Source: an uncultured Gammaproteobacteria bacterium (lineage in GTDB: Bacteria; Patescibacteriota; Microgenomatia; UBA10105; UBA927). Taken from it: a stretch of 64,000 nt of DNA. Shown one piece after another: positions 10,278 to 61,855 of this stretch; position 1 is the first letter of the stretch; every line of letters starts with the position of its first letter. The notes below the pieces were generated by a model. The model made no database searches. It was not told where the DNA came from and saw only the letters and a list, made by a program, of their open reading frames with translations. Location of the stretch: NCBI GenBank assembly GCA_964515005.1, contig CAZEVT010000001.1, forward strand, positions 125,521 to 189,520, given 5' to 3'. The position numbers were made by a program, and so were the translations under genes.

Positions 10278-11243
10278 ATGAAAATACTTGCGCTAGAAAC
10301 CAGTTGTGACGAAACGGCAGCAGCAGTCGTTGAGGATGGAGTCAAAATACTAAGTAACGTGGTGGCTTCATCAACGGCGATGCATGCGAAGTACGGCGGG
10401 ATTGTCCCGGAAGTGGCGGCCCGCGAACAGCTCAAGTGCATGATCCCGACACTAGAAGAAGCGTTAAAAGGACAGCAGTATGACGCAATCGCAGTAACGG
10501 TTGGACCGGGACTCATTGGCTCGCTTCTCGTCGGCGTGGAAACCGCAAAAACCCTAAGCATGGTGACAGGGAAACCCGTCATTCCCGTCAACCATGTCCT
10601 TGCGCACATGTACGCAAATTTCATCCCGAGCGAAGTCGAGGGATCTATTCAATTTCCCGCCATCTCCCTGGTCGTTTCCGGCGGACATACGGAACTTTTC
10701 CTGATGAAATCGACGAAGAATTTGCAGTGGCTCGGTGGAACCCTTGATGACGCGGCGGGAGAAGCGTTTGATAAAACCGCGCGACTTTTGGGATTTAGAA
10801 ACCGGGGAGGACTAGCCATTCAGGAACATGCAAAAAAATCTGCACTCGTACCAAAACTTCCGCGCCCGCTCATGTACGATAAAACGCTAAATTTTTCGTT
10901 CTCTGGGCTTAAAACGGCTATCATTCGCGAATGGAAAAAACAAGAACTTCATGACAAAGCATATATTGCGGGACTGGCTTATGAAGTGCAGGAGGCAATT
11001 ACCGATGTGTTAGAGGCAAAAACAAAAAATGCAGCAGAACAATACGGAGCGAAAAGTATTTTGATTTCCGGCGGCGTTGCGGCAAATCTTCGTCTTAGAG
11101 AAAAATTACCGTCCGCAATTGCCCCAACAATAAATTTATGCACCGACAATGCCGTCTACATCGCAAGCTATGCCTTTTTTAGGGGAACACCAGTGGATTG
11201 GCACAAGATTACTGCAGTTCCGGATCTTTCTGTTGAAGTATAG
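10278..11243 (+). CDS. tsaD: tRNA N6-adenosine threonylcarbamoyltransferase TsaD (Kae1/Gcp family)
   Basis: MKILALETSCDETAAAVVEDG, HAKYGGIVPEVAAREQ and SLVVSGGHTEL are hallmark motifs. Confidence 0.9.
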   Translation: MKILALETSCDETAAAVVEDGVKILSNVVASSTAMHAKYGGIVPEVAAREQLKCMIPTLEEALKGQQYDAIAVTVGPGLIGSLLVGVETAKTLSMVTGKPVIPVNHVLAHMYANFIPSEVEGSIQFPAISLVVSGGHTELFLMKSTKNLQWLGGTLDDAAGEAFDKTARLLGFRNRGGLAIQEHAKKSALVPKLPRPLMYDKTLNFSFSGLKTAIIREWKKQELHDKAYIAGLAYEVQEAITDVLEAKTKNAAEQYGAKSILISGGVAANLRLREKLPSAIAPTINLCTDNAVYIASYAFFRGTPVDWHKITAVPDLSVEV

Positions 11244-11733
11244 CCGCCTCTTCGATGCACCACGGAGAATATGGAGCGGGGTTTGTTTTAATTTCCTCCA
11301 AAAACACGTTCCAGTCAATCCATTTCCAATCATCAACCTCGCTTGGATTCGGTGTCGGAGTGCCGTCAAAATGGCCAACATGAATTGGACAAATTTCGTT
11401 TTCTACGATTCCGTTCTTATCGGCAAACCGGTAGCGATACGGTGCAACTTCTTTTACCTCTGCACCCGTAATTCCCAACTCTTCCTTGAGTCTTCTGGTT
11501 GCCGCCTGGACTGTCGATTCGTTCGGGGCCAAATGCCCACATATGGTATTAGTCCACACTCCCGGAAAAGTTTTTTTACTTGCGGCTCGTTTGGTAACCA
11601 GGAGTTGTTTTTTTGAATTAAAAAGAAATAGGGAAAATGCCCGGTGAAGCGGTGTATCTTTTGTGTGAACTTCATCCTTAGGTTTTGTACCCAGGACGTT
11701 GTTTTGATCATCTACAAGAACCACAAGTTCCAT
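11209..11733 (-). CDS. idi: Isopentenyl-diphosphate delta-isomerase type 1 (Nudix fold)
   Basis: LHRAFSLFLFN...LLVTKRAASKKTFPGVWTNTICGH...GIVENEICPI aligns with E. coli Idi. The 3' end overlaps the tsaD 3' end by 35 nt (convergent). Confidence 0.8.
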   Translation of the reverse strand: MELVVLVDDQNNVLGTKPKDEVHTKDTPLHRAFSLFLFNSKKQLLVTKRAASKKTFPGVWTNTICGHLAPNESTVQAATRRLKEELGITGAEVKEVAPYRYRFADKNGIVENEICPIHVGHFDGTPTPNPSEVDDWKWIDWNVFLEEIKTNPAPYSPWCIEEAAILQQKDPELQ

Positions 11734-11734
11734 G

Positions 11735-11806
11735 TGGGCCAGCTTGGTGACGATCCAAGTACCCCCAACTTATAAGGTTGGTGCTCTACCGATGAGCTAC
11801 TGGCCC
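11735..11806 (-). tRNA. tRNA-Ile with anticodon UAU (72 nt, no encoded CCA)
   Basis: Minus-strand cloverleaf: acceptor GGGCCAG/CTGGCCC, D-arm GCTC-ATCGGTA-GAGC, anticodon stem CCAAC/GTTGG, loop CTTATAA, T-arm CTTGG-ATCGTCA-CCAAG. The T-loop is non-canonical (A54, U58). Confidence 0.6.
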
Positions 11807-18189: not shown

Positions 18190-20622
18190 TCAGCACTCGG
18201 AATACCCGCAACTGTAGCATTTCTTGCAGGATTCTTCAAACACCAGACTTGCTTCTCCGCAGGTGGGGCAGAGGTCGACCGTCACCATACGTTTTTCGGT
18301 GAGTAACATCTGCTGACCGGGCGGCGTCATAGGCTGTTCTGCAGGTTCCACCTGTGGGGCCTGGACTCCTGCGGTGAGCGAAGTCGAGGCATGGCCATTG
18401 CCGTTGGTTATATGTCCGTTCGTATGTCCATTCGTTGAGGGAATCGGAACATCTGCGTGTTTCGTAAAGAATCCAAAGTGCCGGTCGATGACTTTGGCAA
18501 TTGCGTCCGGAAGACTCCTCACACGGTTTTCCCCAAATCCGAGGCTCCTGGCCCCGCCGATCCCGATAAGCATGGAGGCAATCTTATGCGCCCGTTCCAT
18601 GGGAGCAATCGGGGATGCCATGCGAAGGGTCAAAGAGATTACTTTCCCAAGCGCCTCTGCCATGGCAGTCACATCGCTTCCTGCTTTCCCGACATTAATA
18701 AACATTTCAACCGGCTGATTGCCACCATTGGTGTTGACGGTCACATACGCCTCACCAACCGGCGTATCCAGGCGGTAGGTCGACCCATGGACGACCATCG
18801 GGCGGGGCTTCACCTCAGGGGCGGTAATGAGCTGTTTGACCTCTTCTACTTTTTTCTCGTCCATCCGGGTGAGTACGCCTGCGCGGCTTCCTTCCCGCAT
18901 GTAGGCGATGCCCTTACACCCCTGTTCATAGGCAAGTGTGTACAGACGCTTGACGTCCTCGACCGTATGGGTTGCCGGCGCATTCACGGTTTTTGATATC
19001 GAGGCGTCAACGTATTTTTGAATCGTTGCCTGAACGTACACATGATCCTCCGGCGTCAAATCATTTGCCGACACAAACCATGACGGGCGATCTTCTTTTG
19101 TTGGTTCTTTTCCATTTGTACTCTTAAATTCTTCAAACCACGCCTCATAGAGCGGGTGTCGAAGTGTATGTTCACCAAGCCGGTCGCGCCTGATGAATTC
19201 AAACTCATACACGGGCTCGATGCCGCTTGAAACCCCCGACATGAGCGATGTGGATCCCGTCGGTGCCTGCTGGAGAATGACGGAGTTACGGACGCCATGC
19301 TTTTTCATGTTCTTCTTAATGGCATCAGGAAGCTGTTTGATAAAGTAGGCCTCGACGTGTTTTTTCTTGTCAATTTTGGGAAACGGGCCTTTTTCCTTCG
19401 CAATCGCGACCGACGCTTCGTAGGCGGCGTCCCTAATTGTTTTGTAGATTTTGTCTATGACCGGAAGGCTTTCCGGCGCCCCATAGCGGAGCTTCATTTT
19501 GATAAGCGCATCTCCCAACCCCATGGTTCCCAAGCCGATTCTTCGCTCACCATGTTTCTGCACTTTCTTTATCTCATCAAAGACATACACATCCGCATCA
19601 ACGACATCATCCTGAAACCGCACGCCGATTTTGGAAATCTCCACGAGTCTTGCGTAGTCCATTTCGCCGTTGTCCTTCACAAGGGCGGCGAGATTAATCG
19701 AACAGAGATTGCACACGCCCCAATTCGGGAGCCCCTCTTCGCCGCACGGATTAACGCAGTTAATGTATTCAAAGTAGGAATTGTTAAACCATTTGTTGTA
19801 CCGCTCCATAAAGACCACCCCGGGCTCGGCAGATTTCCAGGCCGCCTGCGCAATAAGATCCCAGAGGGCACGTGCTTTGATCGTTTTGTGGACAATGACT
19901 TTTTTTCCAAGGGCCACCCAGTTGGGAAGGTAGCCATCCCATTTGGCATCATACTCAGGATCGGATTTGTCCGGGAACACGAGCTCCCAATCGGTATCCG
20001 TCTTGACCGCTTCCATAAACTTATCAGAAACGCAGACGGAAAGATTGGCGCCGTTTATCCGCGCAAGATCCTGTTTGACGGTGATAAACTCCTCCATATC
20101 CGGGTGCCAGTCCCACAGCATAAGCATAAGCGCGCCGCGCCTGCTGCCCCCCTGTTGAATGATATCCTTGGTCGCAACCGAAAAAAGCTCCGCCCAGTTA
20201 CAAGGACCCGAGGAAAATCCGTTTACCTTTTGGACCCGGGCGCCGCGCGGCCGAAGACTTGAAAGGTTTATTCCTACCCCGCCGCCGCGGGACATAATCT
20301 CGACCATTTGACCAAGCGTTTTGAGAATGCCGCCGCGAGAGTCGTGCGGAGAGGGAATAACAAAACAATTATAGAAGGTCACTTTGTATCCGGTCCCGGC
20401 ACCCGACAAAATCCGTCCGCCGGGAACAAAGGCAAAATCCTGCATCGCGCCGTAAAACTTGTCTTCCCACGCTTTTCGCTGTTTTTTGGGTTCGACGGAC
20501 GCAATCGCGTGGGAAACTCTGCGCCACATTTCTTCAGGAGACTTCTCCGTGGGATTACCCGTTTCGTCTTTGAGCGCGTAGCGATCCAAAAATACTGTTT
20601 TTCGAATTCCGGTTAGATCCAT
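18190..20622 (-). CDS. nrdJ: Class II (adenosylcobalamin-dependent) ribonucleotide reductase NrdJ with C-terminal zinc-ribbon tail
   Basis: FLDRYALKDETGNPTE, active site CNLCSINLAALV, C-terminus CPTCGE...CKKCYSCGYSEC. Contains a low-complexity insert STNGHTNGHITNGNGHAS. Confidence 0.92.
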   Translation of the reverse strand: MDLTGIRKTVFLDRYALKDETGNPTEKSPEEMWRRVSHAIASVEPKKQRKAWEDKFYGAMQDFAFVPGGRILSGAGTGYKVTFYNCFVIPSPHDSRGGILKTLGQMVEIMSRGGGVGINLSSLRPRGARVQKVNGFSSGPCNWAELFSVATKDIIQQGGSRRGALMLMLWDWHPDMEEFITVKQDLARINGANLSVCVSDKFMEAVKTDTDWELVFPDKSDPEYDAKWDGYLPNWVALGKKVIVHKTIKARALWDLIAQAAWKSAEPGVVFMERYNKWFNNSYFEYINCVNPCGEEGLPNWGVCNLCSINLAALVKDNGEMDYARLVEISKIGVRFQDDVVDADVYVFDEIKKVQKHGERRIGLGTMGLGDALIKMKLRYGAPESLPVIDKIYKTIRDAAYEASVAIAKEKGPFPKIDKKKHVEAYFIKQLPDAIKKNMKKHGVRNSVILQQAPTGSTSLMSGVSSGIEPVYEFEFIRRDRLGEHTLRHPLYEAWFEEFKSTNGKEPTKEDRPSWFVSANDLTPEDHVYVQATIQKYVDASISKTVNAPATHTVEDVKRLYTLAYEQGCKGIAYMREGSRAGVLTRMDEKKVEEVKQLITAPEVKPRPMVVHGSTYRLDTPVGEAYVTVNTNGGNQPVEMFINVGKAGSDVTAMAEALGKVISLTLRMASPIAPMERAHKIASMLIGIGGARSLGFGENRVRSLPDAIAKVIDRHFGFFTKHADVPIPSTNGHTNGHITNGNGHASTSLTAGVQAPQVEPAEQPMTPPGQQMLLTEKRMVTVDLCPTCGEASLVFEESCKKCYSCGYSEC

Positions 20623-54135: not shown

Positions 54136-54447
54136 TTACTTCTTTCCCAGACCTGAAAAAAGAAGAATCAAAGCCCCCGCTGTGAAAACTGCGAAGACGC
54201 CAACAGTTTGAACAAATAGATTTATTCCTTCTTTCTTCTTCCCTTTAATAAAAAGCTGGAGTGGTTGGTAAAAAAACAGATACGCCATAACTGCAACAGA
54301 GAGGGTAAGTAGCGACAGAAATGCGATTGGAGCAAAAGCTGTATCAGGCTTGTTCCGAAGAGTGTGAGACACGAAATTCATAACGGTAACGACAAGGATT
54401 ATGTAACCTGAAGCGCTAATCGCATTAATAATAGGATTTTTAGACAT
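54136..54447 (-). CDS. Small membrane protein
   Basis: Three hydrophobic helices. The start was trimmed to an internal ATG to avoid overlap with tRNA-Asn. Confidence 0.35.
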   Translation of the reverse strand: MSKNPIINAISASGYIILVVTVMNFVSHTLRNKPDTAFAPIAFLSLLTLSVAVMAYLFFYQPLQLFIKGKKKEGINLFVQTVGVFAVFTAGALILLFSGLGKK

Positions 54448-54465
54448 GTGATGATTATACCAAAT

Positions 54466-54540
54466 TGGCTCCCCCGGCAGGATTCGAACCTGCAACCTTC
54501 TTCTTAACAGGAAGCCGCTCTACCATTGAGCTACAGGGGA
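54466..54540 (-). tRNA. tRNA-Asn (GUU), CCA encoded
   Basis: Acceptor TCCCCTG/CGGGGGA (U1-A72 as in E. coli tRNA-Asn). D-arm GCTC-AATGGTA-GAGC. Anticodon loop CTGTTAA. T-arm GCAGG-TTCGAAT-CCTGC. Confidence 0.85.
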
Positions 54541-54575
54541 ATGGAAAAGAACACGGGTATTATATCACGATTCCC

Positions 54576-58265: not shown

Positions 58266-58736
58266 TTATTCAAACACAGGGAGTGGGAACGGGGTTTTTC
58301 TGTACTTGAGATACAGGCCGATTGTTTCTCCGTGATCAAATGCAAACTTATCAAGAGAAATAAGTTTATCGGTCGGAATCCATTCTACTTTCGATGACTC
58401 TTTGTCCGGCTCACCGGTTTTCTTGAGGGGTTTGACGAGAAACTCAATCGTTATATTTTGTCTGTCTTCACGGGGACGATCCGGTCGGGTATTCACACGA
58501 AACAGTGATAGTACCTCTCCCTCCCACCCTGTTTCTTCTTTGAGTTCTCGAAGGATCCCTTGTGCTGCTGTTTCATCACGGTTGAGAAACCCGGCCGGCA
58601 AACTCCATTTGCCCGTTTCCAAAATATCTCCGGCCCGCTTCTCCAAAAGCAGCTTCCCGTCCATCTCCACAATCGCATGCACAACGACGTGCCGCAGTTT
58701 TGCCGTAAATCCTTTTTCAAACGTACAGGTGATCAT
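58266..58736 (-). CDS. NUDIX hydrolase
   Basis: Nudix box GFLNRDETAAQGILRELKEETGWEG. Confidence 0.75.
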   Translation of the reverse strand: MITCTFEKGFTAKLRHVVVHAIVEMDGKLLLEKRAGDILETGKWSLPAGFLNRDETAAQGILRELKEETGWEGEVLSLFRVNTRPDRPREDRQNITIEFLVKPLKKTGEPDKESSKVEWIPTDKLISLDKFAFDHGETIGLYLKYRKTPFPLPVFE

Positions 58737-59050
58737 TCTTTTTCCTCGTGATTCCACTTCAGCCATTTCCCCTCAAATATTTTATCCAGATCGACATTGA
58801 AATGTTTGGCCAAAAGAAGCACGTGGGCCAGTACGTCTGCGACTTCGTTTTCAAAATCGTCATTAATTTCTTCTGGGCTTTTCCCTTTTAGACGCGCTTT
58901 ACCCTTCACCATAAGATAGGACTGGATTAATTCGCCGAGTTCTTCCTGAAGCTTTAGTACAAACCAATCAGAATCCCGCTCGAACTCAAACTTTTTTGAA
59001 TAGTTTTGCGAGATCTTCTCTATTTTTTCCGTTAATTCATGGATATCCAT
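58733..59050 (-). CDS. MazG-like nucleotide pyrophosphohydrolase
   Basis: EELGELIQ...ENEVADVLAHVLLLA contains the EExxE/D motifs. The start was trimmed to an internal ATG to clear the tRNA. Confidence 0.65.
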   Translation of the reverse strand: MDIHELTEKIEKISQNYSKKFEFERDSDWFVLKLQEELGELIQSYLMVKGKARLKGKSPEEINDDFENEVADVLAHVLLLAKHFNVDLDKIFEGKWLKWNHEEKE

Positions 59051-59181: not shown

Positions 59182-60093
59182 ATGTCTTCCCGTACCAAAG
59201 CGCTCATTGCCATCGTTTGTGCCGCACTCCTGTGGTCGACTGCGGGACTTGCAAAAATCATCGTGCGGGAGCTTGACCCGTATATTGCGGCATTCCTCCG
59301 GTTTTTTGTCGCCTCTTTGGTAATCCTGCCGTTTTTTCTCAGGGAGAAAACCAGCAGAAAACACCTCCTCCGTGATCTCGTTCCGTTATCCCTTTTGAGT
59401 GCGGCAAATATACTTTTTTACTACGTGGGACTGTCTGTCTCCACCGCCAACGCAGCAACCCTCATTTATGCAGGCGGACCGCTTCTTACGGCCGTTCTGG
59501 CGCACCGTTTGATCGGGGAACGCTTGAATATGCAAAAAATCACTGGTATTTTATTGGGACTTGTCGGTGTCATTTTTGTCGCACTTCTTCCGGTGGTTGC
59601 AAAAAACGAATCTGTCTCGGCAAATATATACGGGAATGCTTCTTTCGTAGTTGCAACACTCGTCTGGTCTCTTTTTACCATCGGCTCCCGGCGGGCGATA
59701 GCAAGCCGAGGATATTCACCTCTCACGGTTGCCAGTATGTCTATATTTACCATATGTATCGTATTTTTTGTCATCAGCGTTTTTACATTTCAACCACGGT
59801 ATCTGATAACTCTTAAAGAGCCATCTACAATCCTTCTTATTCTTCATCTGGGGACACTGGTCACCGTTGCCACATCGCTCCTGTATCTTTGGGCCATCAA
59901 ACACTCATCCGCAACCACCGCATCGCTTCAAAATTACATCGGACCCGTGTTTTCTATTTTGGTGAATGTCGCGTTCCTGGGCGAAACCGTAACGCCGATG
60001 TTTCTTGTGGGGACCGCGCTCGTGTTTATGGGAGTTATTGTCGTCAGCGGCTCGGGGCTCCTGCAGGAGGTGAGAGATTGGGTAAACAGGTAA
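59182..60093 (+). CDS. EamA/DMT-family transporter
   Basis: Ten TM helices with duplicated EamA domains (LLWSTAGLAKII..., ...LGETVTPMFLVGTALVFMGVIVV). Confidence 0.8.
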   Translation: MSSRTKALIAIVCAALLWSTAGLAKIIVRELDPYIAAFLRFFVASLVILPFFLREKTSRKHLLRDLVPLSLLSAANILFYYVGLSVSTANAATLIYAGGPLLTAVLAHRLIGERLNMQKITGILLGLVGVIFVALLPVVAKNESVSANIYGNASFVVATLVWSLFTIGSRRAIASRGYSPLTVASMSIFTICIVFFVISVFTFQPRYLITLKEPSTILLILHLGTLVTVATSLLYLWAIKHSSATTASLQNYIGPVFSILVNVAFLGETVTPMFLVGTALVFMGVIVVSGSGLLQEVRDWVNR

Positions 60094-60097
60094 TGAG

Positions 60098-60169
60098 CGC
60101 TCTCGGGCAGAGTCGAACTGCCATCACAGCCTCCGGAGGGCCGCGTTCTATCCTTTAAACTACGAGAGC
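60098..60169 (-). tRNA. tRNA-Arg (CCG)
   Basis: Acceptor GCTCTCG/CGAGAGC. D-arm GTTT-AAAGGATA-GAAC. Anticodon loop CTCCGGA. T-arm GGCAG-TTCGACT-CTGCC. Confidence 0.8.
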
Positions 60170-60576
60170 TTGGTGATATCTCCGTCAAGAACCGTTGGCC
60201 GCATGGCGGCAAGTTCAAGCGTATAGATCATATCAGGCACCGGATTGAGAAAATATATTGGCTTTCGAAGATAATACGCATAGCCTACTTCCAAAAACGT
60301 ATTCCCCCCGATGTAGCTTGCAACCCCGTCTTTATCGAAGTTGGCAACCAATACGACATCGGCTTTTTCAATCTTCTTAAAGTGCTCACGAATGAAGTCG
60401 TATTTTGCCTCCGCCGCAAGCCGCTCCGCGACCGTTTTGGGCTTTACAAATCCTTCTTGTTCAATAAGATCAAAACTTTTCGGAACAAACACCGTGTGAC
60501 CTTTCGCTTCCAACGTACGTTGCAAGTCTCTCATTTCTTTATGAAACGTCAAGCTTCCGCAGAGTGCTATGTTCAT
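60160..60576 (-). CDS. Nucleoside 2-deoxyribosyltransferase-like (NDT/PF05014-like fold) protein
   Basis: IGGNTFLEVGYAYYL matches the NDT catalytic-Glu region (D.G...E.G.A). The 3' end overlaps tRNA-Arg by 10 nt. Confidence 0.55.
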   Translation of the reverse strand: MNIALCGSLTFHKEMRDLQRTLEAKGHTVFVPKSFDLIEQEGFVKPKTVAERLAAEAKYDFIREHFKKIEKADVVLVANFDKDGVASYIGGNTFLEVGYAYYLRKPIYFLNPVPDMIYTLELAAMRPTVLDGDITKLS

Positions 60577-60986
60577 ACCAGTTTTTGCAAATCACCGTTG
60601 AGAATCACCGGCTGCATGGAGTGCATCTCGACGCTGTAATCCATCTCCGGGACGGAGTAAAGTAGGTAAATCTTCTTGTCCAGTCCAAACGCGTGCCCCA
60701 TCTCCAAAAAGGTATTGCCGCCGATATATCCCGGGACACTTTTCTTCTCATAATTCAAAACGACAATTGCGTCGGAACGCTCAATCTTTTTGAAGTGTTC
60801 ACGGATAAAATCGTGCTCAATTTTGGTGGTAATCCTTTCCTCATCTGTGTCCATATATGTCTCATTTTGCGCAAGAATGGTCAAGTCTTTGGGCACGAGC
60901 ACCATATGGCCTGCCTCTTCCAGCATGTACTGGATCTGGGCCATCTCATGATGAAACTGCATGCTTCCGCAGATGGTTATGGTCAT
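60573..60986 (-). CDS. Nucleoside 2-deoxyribosyltransferase-like protein, tandem paralog
   Basis: MTITICGSMQFHHEM...IGGNTFLEMGHAFGL parallels the downstream copy. The start was trimmed to an internal ATG to clear tRNA-Ser. Confidence 0.55.
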   Translation of the reverse strand: MTITICGSMQFHHEMAQIQYMLEEAGHMVLVPKDLTILAQNETYMDTDEERITTKIEHDFIREHFKKIERSDAIVVLNYEKKSVPGYIGGNTFLEMGHAFGLDKKIYLLYSVPEMDYSVEMHSMQPVILNGDLQKLV

Positions 60987-61022
60987 ACATTCGTCGCTTA
61001 AGTAAGCGTAAGCGGAGGGGGC

Positions 61023-61110
61023 GAGACTCGAACTCGCAAGCCTCCTTACGGAGGCAACAGTTTTCGAGACTGTCCGGATAACCATTCCCAGCACCCCTCC
61101 AGTGGCGCGC
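61023..61110 (-). tRNA. tRNA-Ser (CGA), type II
   Basis: Acceptor GGAGGGG/CCCCTCC. Anticodon stem ACAGT/ACTGT with loop CTCGAAA. Variable arm GCCTCC-GTAA-GGAGGC. T-arm GCGAG-TTCGAGT-CTCGC. Confidence 0.8.
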
Positions 61111-61112
61111 CC

Positions 61113-61189
61113 GGCGGGAGTTGAACCCACAATCGTCAGATCCGCAATCTGATGCTCTATCCAGTTAAGCTACGGGCGCAGTGGAGCTT
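61113..61189 (-). tRNA. tRNA-Arg (GCG), CCA encoded
   Basis: Acceptor GCGCCCG/CGGGCGC. D-arm GCTT-AACTGGATA-GAGC. Anticodon stem TCAGA/TCTGA with loop TTGCGGA. T-arm GTGGG-TTCAACT-CCCGC. Confidence 0.75.
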
Positions 61190-61190
61190 A

Positions 61191-61571
61191 TTATACCGCA
61201 AAACGAAGCTTTGGGATGCCTTGGTAGTGTTTTTTATTGCGTGTGGCCATCTTGGCTCCGATGGAAACGCTGGTAGCACCGACAATCAAATCAGCAAGGG
61301 CTGCGTCAGTGGTATGATCCCGCTTTGTCTGACCTGCAAATTCTGCAAGCTCAGTTCCGAGGGGAATAACAATAAAACCCTCAATAAGTTCCTTTAGTTT
61401 GCCAACAACCGCTTTTGACGACTTTCCGGCAAATAATTCAAGCACAGTCACTGCGGAAAGATATAATTCAACTTTGCCGTCCCGCTGGGCTTCAACAAGC
61501 TTCACTAACCCGCCACCGCCGGTTCGCAAGTAGTCGATGATAACATCACTATCAATAAGTACTTTCGTCAT
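61191..61571 (-). CDS. vapC: PIN-domain toxin (VapC-like)
   Basis: MTKVLIDSDVIIDYL. It overlaps the upstream antitoxin gene by 4 nt. Confidence 0.7.
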   Translation of the reverse strand: MTKVLIDSDVIIDYLRTGGGGLVKLVEAQRDGKVELYLSAVTVLELFAGKSSKAVVGKLKELIEGFIVIPLGTELAEFAGQTKRDHTTDAALADLIVGATSVSIGAKMATRNKKHYQGIPKLRFAV

Positions 61572-61834
61572 GAAAATATTGGCCGGCGCCAATAACGTTT
61601 TTCCCGGACTGTGCGGGTCCAGGCCGCTTCATTCTTCAAGACCCCCTTCAAACCCGGAAGCACGTGGGTAAGAATATAGTCTGCCTTGCCGGCCGCATCA
61701 TATCTCACCGGCACAATCTTCACGATCCGTTTCCCTTCTTTTTCCACTTCAATAATATCGCCTGTTTTGGCGACCCGCTCCATAATGGCAAATATATCTT
61801 TTCTCAACGCCGTGATTGGGAGAATATAGTTCAT
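61568..61834 (-). CDS. Type II antitoxin (Phd/YefM-like)
   Basis: MNYILPITALRKDIFAIMERVAKTGDIIEV. The start is ambiguous (ATG at 61832-61834 or at 61850-61852), and both lie inside the palindrome. Confidence 0.55.
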   Translation of the reverse strand: MNYILPITALRKDIFAIMERVAKTGDIIEVEKEGKRIVKIVPVRYDAAGKADYILTHVLPGLKGVLKNEAAWTRTVREKRYWRRPIFS

Positions 61835-61855
61835 ATGTACACTAGTGTACATATG
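61832..61855. promoter_or_regulatory. 24-bp perfect palindrome CATATGTACACTAGTGTACATATG at the antitoxin 5' end (candidate autoregulatory operator)
   Basis: Self-complementary by inspection. It shares the ATATGTACA half-site with the 23043-23060 palindrome. Confidence 0.5.

Follow-up and report, generated by a model that had tools for sequence, protein, structure and literature searches.

We analysed a 64,000-nucleotide (nt) window of an uncultured patescibacterial genome (GenBank assembly GCA_964515005.1, contig CAZEVT010000001.1, positions 125,521 to 189,520) and concentrated on two adjacent protein-coding genes, here called A and B, that lie among transfer RNA (tRNA) genes on the minus strand. 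The pair represents a distinct, uncharacterised subfamily of the superfamily that includes the nucleoside 2'-deoxyribosyltransferases (NDTs) and DNPH1, with a Glu/His active site and an ancestral place in a tRNA-led operon. Judged by residues and gene associations, A and B are probably nucleotide N-glycosidases tied to nucleotide pool sanitation and salvage. We rate as slightly better than even the combined reading in which they are translationally coupled, functional paralogues that act on nucleoside 5'-monophosphates (NMPs), are ancestral to a Ser/Arg tRNA array and are expressed from a tRNA-led transcript.

The unit occupies 60097-61198 of the window on the minus strand and, in the direction of transcription, consists of the following features:

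61190..61198, minus strand: -10 promoter-like element CGGTATAAT, one mismatch to TGNTATAAT; proposed promoter of the unit
61103..61179, minus strand: tRNA-Arg(GCG), first gene of the unit (ARAGORN; Rfam tRNA model, 65.6 bits)
61012..61100, minus strand: tRNA-Ser(CGA), 2 nt 3' of tRNA-Arg(GCG) (ARAGORN; Rfam, 49.6 bits)
60573..60986, minus strand: gene A, 137 amino acids (aa), NDT superfamily, A clade (PF05014, 26.5 bits against a cutoff of 28.8)
60160..60576, minus strand: gene B, 138 aa, ATG start, B-clade paralogue (PF05014, 29.6 bits against the same cutoff)
60227..60235, minus strand: weak -10-like sequence TGATATGAT inside gene B, with one mismatch, 58 nt before tRNA-Arg(CCG)
60160..60162, minus strand: stop codon UAG of gene B, which is U8-A9-G10 of tRNA-Arg(CCG) (GCUCUCG-UAG in the sequence)
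60097..60169, minus strand: tRNA-Arg(CCG), last gene of the unit (ARAGORN; Rfam, 59.2 bits)

Successive genes are separated by 2, 25, -4 and -10 nt. All three tRNAs were supported by both ARAGORN and Rfam covariance models, and both place the 5' end of tRNA-Arg(CCG) at 60169. The ATG of gene A lies 25 nt past the 3' end of tRNA-Ser(CGA), and this spacer contains no sequence resembling a Shine-Dalgarno or -10 element. The stop of A and the start of B overlap in the tetranucleotide ATGA (60573-60576), which suggests translational coupling. The tRNA-Ser(CGA) gene does not encode CCA. Its top Rfam model (61014-61100) is tRNA-Sec at 49.6 bits, with a gathering score of 47, although its anticodon is CGA and not UCA; the match probably stems from the long variable arm.

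Much of this layout had already been proposed in an initial annotation made without database searches. The 4-nt overlap, the 10 nt shared by gene B and tRNA-Arg(CCG), the bracketing by the three tRNAs and the presence of an NDT-like motif in both proteins (YIGGNTFLE[VM]G[YH]A) all held up, the last with the NDT-superfamily fold and catalytic Glu retained according to Pfam, AlphaFold2 and hhalign. Both genes had been given as 138-aa paralogues with roughly 35% identity. They are paralogues and B has that length, but A is 137 aa from the ATG that matches its homologues, and BLASTP puts their identity at 49% (E 5e-50). As also noted then, the longest open reading frame of gene A (185 aa, from GTG 61130) runs into tRNA-Ser(CGA); it spans that gene and extends 28 nt into tRNA-Arg(GCG). 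We adopted the 137-aa form because every homologue starts at the methionine of M-x-I-x-I-C-G-S.

The arrangement is not an assembly artefact, since an independent Logan assembly (L085) is identical across window positions 60050-61200 and a JGI contig has the same gene order. The GC content of A and B is 46%, compared with 49% for the window, and codon counts showed no dependence of either gene on the flanking tRNAs.

Family, fold and active site

A and B belong to a large, uncharacterised subfamily that is widespread in Patescibacteria. We recovered 268 homologues in 90% clusters, and an exhaustive hidden Markov model search returned 1852 representative clusters (50% identity) at E ≤ 1e-3, with 971 at E ≤ 1e-10. 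A scan of one genome per species detected the family in 297 genomes. These numbers, together with the invariant motifs, confirm from sequence that A and B are genes far beyond chance. The literature searched contained no description of the protein family or of the tRNA array. Outside Patescibacteria, distant homologues with 28-36% identity, all annotated as hypothetical, were observed in Caulobacter phage CcrColossus (gp148, L088) and on plasmids of Streptomyces, Vibrio, Rhizobium and Roseibium.

The only Pfam family matched was PF05014, with B just above the gathering score. Searches of NCBIfam gave nothing meaningful, and PHROGs gave only a weak NDT match (E 0.018). An AlphaFold2 model of B built from 49 homologues had a predicted local distance difference test (pLDDT) score of 94 and a predicted TM-score (pTM) of 0.87. 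The top Foldseek matches to this model were YtoQ, the CMP N-glycosidase BcmB, NDTs, DNPH1 and MilB (E 1e-4 to 1e-3, TM 0.5-0.6). On this model, the assignment to the NDT-superfamily fold is secure, and the family lies at a similar distance from the transferases as from the NMP hydrolases. YtoQ (8OF6) shares 18-23% identity with the family, and no function for it was found in the literature searched. We also considered and rejected membership in the LOG/PpnN family: the GGNTxxE motif is one residue shorter than PGGxGTxxE, and Pfam returned no match to PF03641 at E up to 1.

To place residues, the sequences of human DNPH1 and Lactobacillus leichmannii NDT (LlNDT) were checked against the PDB and then aligned to the family profile with hhalign, which was used for residue register only and cross-checked with the secondary structure of the AlphaFold2 model. 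The alignments were mutually consistent and fit helix 61-71 and strand 74-77 of the model. The resulting equivalences were:

E96 of B (E95 of A): E98 of LlNDT and E104 of DNPH1; nucleophile (hhalign, hmmsearch)
H65 of B: D72 of LlNDT; acid (hhalign)
G90 of B: D92 of LlNDT by alignment and S98 of DNPH1 by the E-6 register; sugar or phosphate binding
A4 of B, T in A: Y24 of DNPH1; 2'-deoxy selection
C6-G7-S8 of B: C26-G27-S28 of DNPH1; N-terminal motif

In B numbering, the residues that are invariant or nearly so across 49-105 homologues are C6, G7, S8, P32, F61, H65, N79, Y88, the run G90-G91-N92-T93-F94-L95-E96, G98, K105, P114 and E121. Conservation of the nucleophilic Glu reaches at least 95% among 96 sequences. 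H65 also falls on the catalytic Asp when hmmsearch aligns the family to 6evs without gaps.

Compared with the NDTs, the family keeps the fold and the Glu nucleophile and has lost D72, D92 and Tyr7, which are replaced by H65, G90 and A4/T4 in alignments that are low in confidence but concordant. The core triad of DNPH1 is Y24, D80 and E104, with S98 and S128' holding the phosphate (PMC10603095). Only the Glu of this triad is kept in our family, the Tyr being replaced by Ala or Thr and the Asp by His. The site thus appears to be re-wired around the retained nucleophile and an invariant His. The small residue at position 4 would leave room for a 2'-OH; in MilB, F17 takes the place of the Tyr and ribose is admitted (PMC10603095). 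Phosphate binding through the G90-G91 backbone is possible.

An ancestral tRNA array and its proposed transcription

We compared the locus with 78 distinct related loci. The gene belongs to the same-strand Ser/Arg tRNA array in 57 of these, 49 of which have a tRNA on either side of it. The array reads Ser(gct), Ser(tga), a membrane-protein gene, Arg(gcg), Ser(cga), the family gene, Arg(ccg), an EamA transporter gene on the opposite strand, and Ser(gga); 50 loci retain the membrane protein and 41 retain EamA. Within this conserved array of Gottesmanbacteria, the family genes are ancestral. Eight loci (L008, L012, L013, L016, L021, L031, L048 and L054) were observed to carry an extra tRNA-Ser with anticodon ACT according to ARAGORN. 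Such an anticodon is unusual, as A34 would need modification.

A neighbour-joining tree separated the family into an A clade and a B clade. The B clade contains gene B of the window, its counterparts in L006, L003 and L001, and 14 genes from the slot that separates tRNA-Arg(gcg) from tRNA-Ser(cga), while all other genes in the slot between Ser(cga) and Arg(ccg) fall in the A clade. The duplication that produced A and B is old. Sixteen loci have both paralogues and most have one; as single-paralogue genomes predominate, A and B are unlikely to form an obligate heterodimer. Gene order also varies, with A-B in the window and L006, B-A in L003 (5001-5827) and B-tRNA-A in 14 loci (L008-L016, L019, L021, L022, L025 and L031). 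The paralogues have shifted between inter-tRNA slots without leaving the array. Clade-fixed differences fall at positions 4 and 9, the equivalents of the sugar and base contacts Y24 and I29 of DNPH1, and in the lid helix at 49-58. From these residues, A and B probably differ in substrate preference.

A scan for sigma-70 promoters that requires a -35 element found nothing relevant, and we replaced it with a search for extended -10 motifs. The window contains 9 sites matching TGNTATAAT against 1.42 expected, and none of 100 shuffles reached 9. Such sites occur 8-20 nt upstream of tRNA-Ser(gct), tRNA-Ile and tRNA-Asn. A distance of 10 nt separates the variant CGGTATAAT from the 5' end of tRNA-Arg(GCG), and this element overlaps the stop codon of an upstream VapC-like gene. 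In related loci we counted matches to TATAAT with at most one mismatch, ending 4-14 nt before a tRNA, for which random positions gave a background of 7.5%:

Upstream of tRNA-Arg(gcg): 36 of 50 related loci
Upstream of tRNA-Ser(gct): 19 of 27 related loci
Upstream of tRNA-Ser(gga): 22 of 36 related loci

No promoter-like or terminator-like site was predicted between the -10 element of the unit and the end of tRNA-Arg(CCG). The locus thus has the features of a tRNA-led operon: its genes share one strand, a promoter-like element lies upstream, and neither promoter nor terminator is predicted internally.

Spacing across the family is similarly tight. In 31 of 66 cases, no more than 30 nt separate the upstream tRNA from the start of the family gene, and in many the distance is 2-10 nt; starts this close leave no room for a promoter or Shine-Dalgarno sequence. 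ATG is the start codon in 94 of 95 genes. The stop codon lies partly or wholly within tRNA-Arg(CCG) in the window, L041 and L050 (10 nt), L038 (15 nt), and L045 and L020 (1 nt). This overlap arose repeatedly, because both paralogue clades are involved.

We propose that a single transcript would begin at the -10 promoter and run through tRNA-Arg(GCG), tRNA-Ser(CGA), A, B and tRNA-Arg(CCG). Processing of the tRNA 3' end would release an mRNA with a 25-nt leader devoid of a Shine-Dalgarno sequence. At the other end, RNase P cleavage at 60169/60170 would cut off the stop codon of gene B, such that any one transcript would permit either proper termination of B or maturation of tRNA-Arg(CCG), with the two in competition. 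This competition might be eased by the weak -10-like sequence within gene B. Transcriptome papers on P. acnes and S. coelicolor offered no precedent for leaderless mRNAs derived from tRNA transcripts.

The tight spacing between tRNAs and coding sequences is a general architecture of this genome and not special to A and B. Wherever a tRNA in the window precedes a coding sequence on the same strand, the start codon is 0-25 nt away; among these are genes 14-25 nt past the tRNAs for Asn, Ser(GGA), Ser(CGA) and Ser(UGA). A second tRNA-led unit has a MazG-like gene 14 nt past tRNA-Ser(GGA), with its own one-mismatch -10 element TAGTATAAT (59171-59163) 8 nt upstream of the tRNA. Elsewhere in the window, tRNA-Ile(UAU) (11734-11806, minus strand) has TGGTATAAT ahead of it, and an Idi-like NUDIX gene (11209-11733, minus strand) begins with ATG only 0-1 nt past the tRNA; the mRNA of this gene would be leaderless once the tRNA 3' end is processed. 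The UAU anticodon of tRNA-Ile is rare in bacteria. At 54445-54567 (minus strand), two extended -10 elements flank tRNA-Asn. One is upstream of the tRNA and the other (54462-54454) ends 6 nt before ATG 54447 of the next open reading frame, and on this spacing the frame is predicted to have a promoter of its own and a leaderless mRNA.

The remaining neighbours of the unit include a VapB-like (PhdYeFM antitoxin) and VapC-like (PIN) pair at 61191-61852 on the minus strand, between the membrane-protein gene and tRNA-Arg(GCG). A PIN gene occupies this slot in one related locus only (L038), and the VapBC pair is a real lineage-specific insertion in the array.

Substrate and alternative explanations

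Domain fusions offered a guide to function. Among the top 150 representatives, 32 are multidomain, and 15 of the 32 are fused to a house-cleaning NTPase: NTPase_I-T (PF01931, the ITPase/XTPase family) in 10, NUDIX in 2, MazG in 2 and Maf in 1. These four unrelated pyrophosphatase folds share hydrolysis of non-canonical nucleoside triphosphates (NTPs). Several tandem double-domain fusions of the family also exist, including P0121, P0122 and P0128. In other Patescibacteria, the immediate same-strand neighbours of family genes include Maf, NTPase_I-T, NUDIX and DHH/DHHA2 phosphoesterase genes, as in the order cytidylyltransferase-like gene, family gene, Maf at L083. The CcrColossus homologue lies between the genes for thymidylate synthase and ribonucleotide reductase (RNR), next to a deoxynucleoside monophosphate kinase gene. 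In a phage pair that is a direct precedent for a module of two such steps, the NDT-like protein DmtZ, a dAMP N-glycosidase or transferase, is adjacent or fused to the dATPase DutZ (PMC12884076). We favoured an N-glycosidase acting at the level of NMPs because of this precedent and of the fusions and adjacency to NTP pyrophosphatases. The most likely activity would be cleavage or base exchange at the N-glycosidic bond of NMPs. The substrates would chiefly be non-canonical NMPs made by the house-cleaning NTP pyrophosphatases, and the products, a base and (deoxy)ribose-5-phosphate, would be available for salvage.

Within the window, two further genes bear on this context:

58733..59050, minus strand: candidate MazG-like all-alpha NTP pyrophosphatase, 105 aa (Pfam PRA-PH, MazG and MazG-like, all sub-threshold, E 6e-4 to 2e-3)
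58266..58736, minus strand: NUDIX gene with a 4-nt overlap with the MazG-like gene, followed by dnaG and rpoD

A large RNR subunit with a C-terminal TSCPD domain is encoded at 18190-20622 on the minus strand. This is consistent with a class II (NrdJ-type) RNR, with which the organism can make deoxynucleotides from ribonucleotides.

The initial annotation had left open whether A and B are NDTs or nucleotide hydrolases of the same fold, including LOG-like ones. That they are classical NDTs (EC 2.4.2.6), exchanging bases for deoxynucleoside salvage in purine-specific and general forms as in lactobacilli, is the chief competing reading but seems unlikely to us. The fold and nucleophile are as in NDTs, yet three of the four signature residues are lost (Y7 to Ala or Thr, D72 to His and D92 to Gly), the C-terminal Tyr is absent and A scores below the Pfam cutoff. 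The link to NTP pyrophosphatases points to phosphorylated substrates and the genome encodes an RNR. On the fusions and the lost Tyr and two Asp residues, a nucleotide hydrolase appears better supported than a classical NDT, and LOG found no match in motif or profile. A reliance on salvage had also been suggested, and this context is partly real, with a class II-type RNR carrying TSCPD, NUDIX genes, the sub-threshold MazG-like gene and a ComF-type phosphoribosyltransferase in the window. Less probable still is that the enzymes serve tRNA or translation biology, either by clearing modified nucleotides from tRNA turnover or by acting on a tRNA-linked substrate. The linkage to tRNAs is conserved and extends to outgroup members that directly follow other tRNAs, the distance being 52 nt for Ala(cgc), 14 nt for Gly(ccc) and 588 nt for Ser(gga), and the fusion partner Maf acts on modified nucleotides. 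Seryl-tRNA synthetase (SerRS; L076 5761-7086 and L079 5447-6772) and an AlaX-like editing protein (L081 5457-6089) adjoin family genes in other Patescibacteria, and in one top-150 member (P0179, 628 aa) the family domain is C-terminal to a class II aminoacyl-tRNA synthetase of the Asp/Lys/Asn type. These associations could indicate a translation link or be coincidence. However, the same tight spacing holds for the Idi-like NUDIX, MazG-like and membrane-protein genes, which marks the linkage as general; translation genes are abundant in small genomes, where such neighbours are expected, and the family lacks an RNA-binding domain.

We regard as remote the idea that A and B are TIR-like NAD+/NMN glycohydrolases involved in NAD turnover or defence. 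TIR domains share the fold and a catalytic Glu, but A and B had no match to Pfam TIR models or in PADLOC, their synteny is of a housekeeping kind, and the YIGGNTFLExG segment aligns with the nucleophile loop of NDTs and DNPH1. Least probable of all, to the point that we give it almost no weight, is a recently inserted or mobile cassette aimed at tRNA genes, as the initial annotation had raised on the grounds that protein genes packed into a tRNA array are unusual. The tRNA genes are common integration sites, the VapBC pair lies directly upstream, and some plasmids and jumbo phages carry distant homologues. Nevertheless, the synteny comparison it had called for refutes the idea, with the same slot and strand in the 57 array loci at deep divergence; integrase, repeats, GC anomaly and PADLOC matches are all absent; and VapBC is itself the variable element. 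The packing is likewise not unusual for this genome, given the spacing of its other tRNAs.

Several of our results weigh against the reading of A and B as nucleotide N-glycosidases in a tRNA-led operon. Searches of PDB sequences with A, B and two family profiles stayed at noise level (best match 6evs, E 0.2-0.5), and hhalign probabilities against the single DNPH1 and LlNDT sequences were low, meaning that the residue equivalences rest on weak alignments and secondary-structure register rather than superposition. The phosphate-binding Ser of DNPH1 and MilB (S98/S97) is absent, with G90 in its place, and no equivalent of S128' or of MilB R23 was identified in the family. Instead, close to where NDT has N123 and DNPH1 has S128', the family has the invariant E121, and an acidic residue there would fit a 5'-OH, and hence a nucleoside, better than a 5'-phosphate. 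The local context in Gottesmanbacteria lends no support to a house-cleaning link, because the MazG-like and NUDIX neighbours are not conserved there (3 and 8 loci only); the conserved neighbours are the membrane protein and the EamA transporter, not NTPases. The synteny itself could reflect slow rearrangement rather than selection. Finally, TGATATGAT could be an auxiliary promoter for tRNA-Arg(CCG), which may uncouple that tRNA from the operon, or a chance match; we saw no such site in L006, the nearest locus that shares this gene order.

Relation to known systems and significance

Beyond the substituted signature residues, A and B differ from the NDTs of PF05014 (L. leichmannii 1F8X and B. 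psychrosaccharolyticus 6EVS) in a hairpin of 7-8 residues added before the nucleophile loop. They resemble DNPH1/Rcl, MilB and BcmB in fold, Glu nucleophile and, for DNPH1, the C-G-S motif, and they share with MilB the departure from Tyr at the sugar-selecting position (PMC10603095); they differ from DNPH1 and MilB in having His for the acid D80, Gly for S98 and the invariant E121 near the S128' region. The pairing with NTP pyrophosphatases recalls DmtZ-DutZ of Z-genome phages (PMC12884076), although the partner folds are different, the setting is cellular housekeeping and the activity of A and B is only predicted.

For the operon, the classical bacterial precedent is tufB, a protein gene transcribed from a tRNA promoter behind several tRNA genes (thrU-tyrU-glyT-thrT-tufB; PMC6134099). 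Unlike tufB, A and B are bracketed by tRNAs on both sides, with a leader of at most 25 nt and a stop codon inside the downstream tRNA. The arrangement also resembles the tRNA punctuation of mitochondria.

In mitochondrial tRNA punctuation, tRNAs abut coding regions, their processing sets the mRNA ends, and coding and tRNA sequences may overlap, much as tRNAs abut and overlap the coding regions of A and B. The present case differs in being on a bacterial chromosome, in having a separate -10 promoter for each short unit and in the absence of polyadenylation to complete stop codons. A more ambitious combination remains tentative, and we would give it clearly less than even odds: that the family is a novel catalytic type within the NDT superfamily with a Glu nucleophile and a His acid, that it supplies the missing last step of nucleotide pool sanitation in Patescibacteria by cleaving what Maf, MazG, NUDIX and ITPase enzymes produce to base and sugar phosphate, and that the locus is a bacterial form of tRNA punctuation in which near-leaderless mRNAs are freed by tRNA processing and RNase P opposes termination at the tRNA-embedded stop codon.

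Patescibacteria cannot synthesise nucleotides de novo and depend on scavenging. If our reading is true, an abundant N-glycosidase family working with house-cleaning pyrophosphatases would fill a gap in how these organisms sanitise and recycle their nucleotide pool. The superfamily, which counts the cancer drug target DNPH1 and the NDTs used as biocatalysts among its members, would gain a Glu/His active-site variant. The locus is a clean, conserved example of a tRNA-led operon with very short leaders and a tRNA-embedded stop codon, and it may serve as a system for testing how streamlined bacteria reconcile the translation of an mRNA with the maturation of tRNAs on one transcript.

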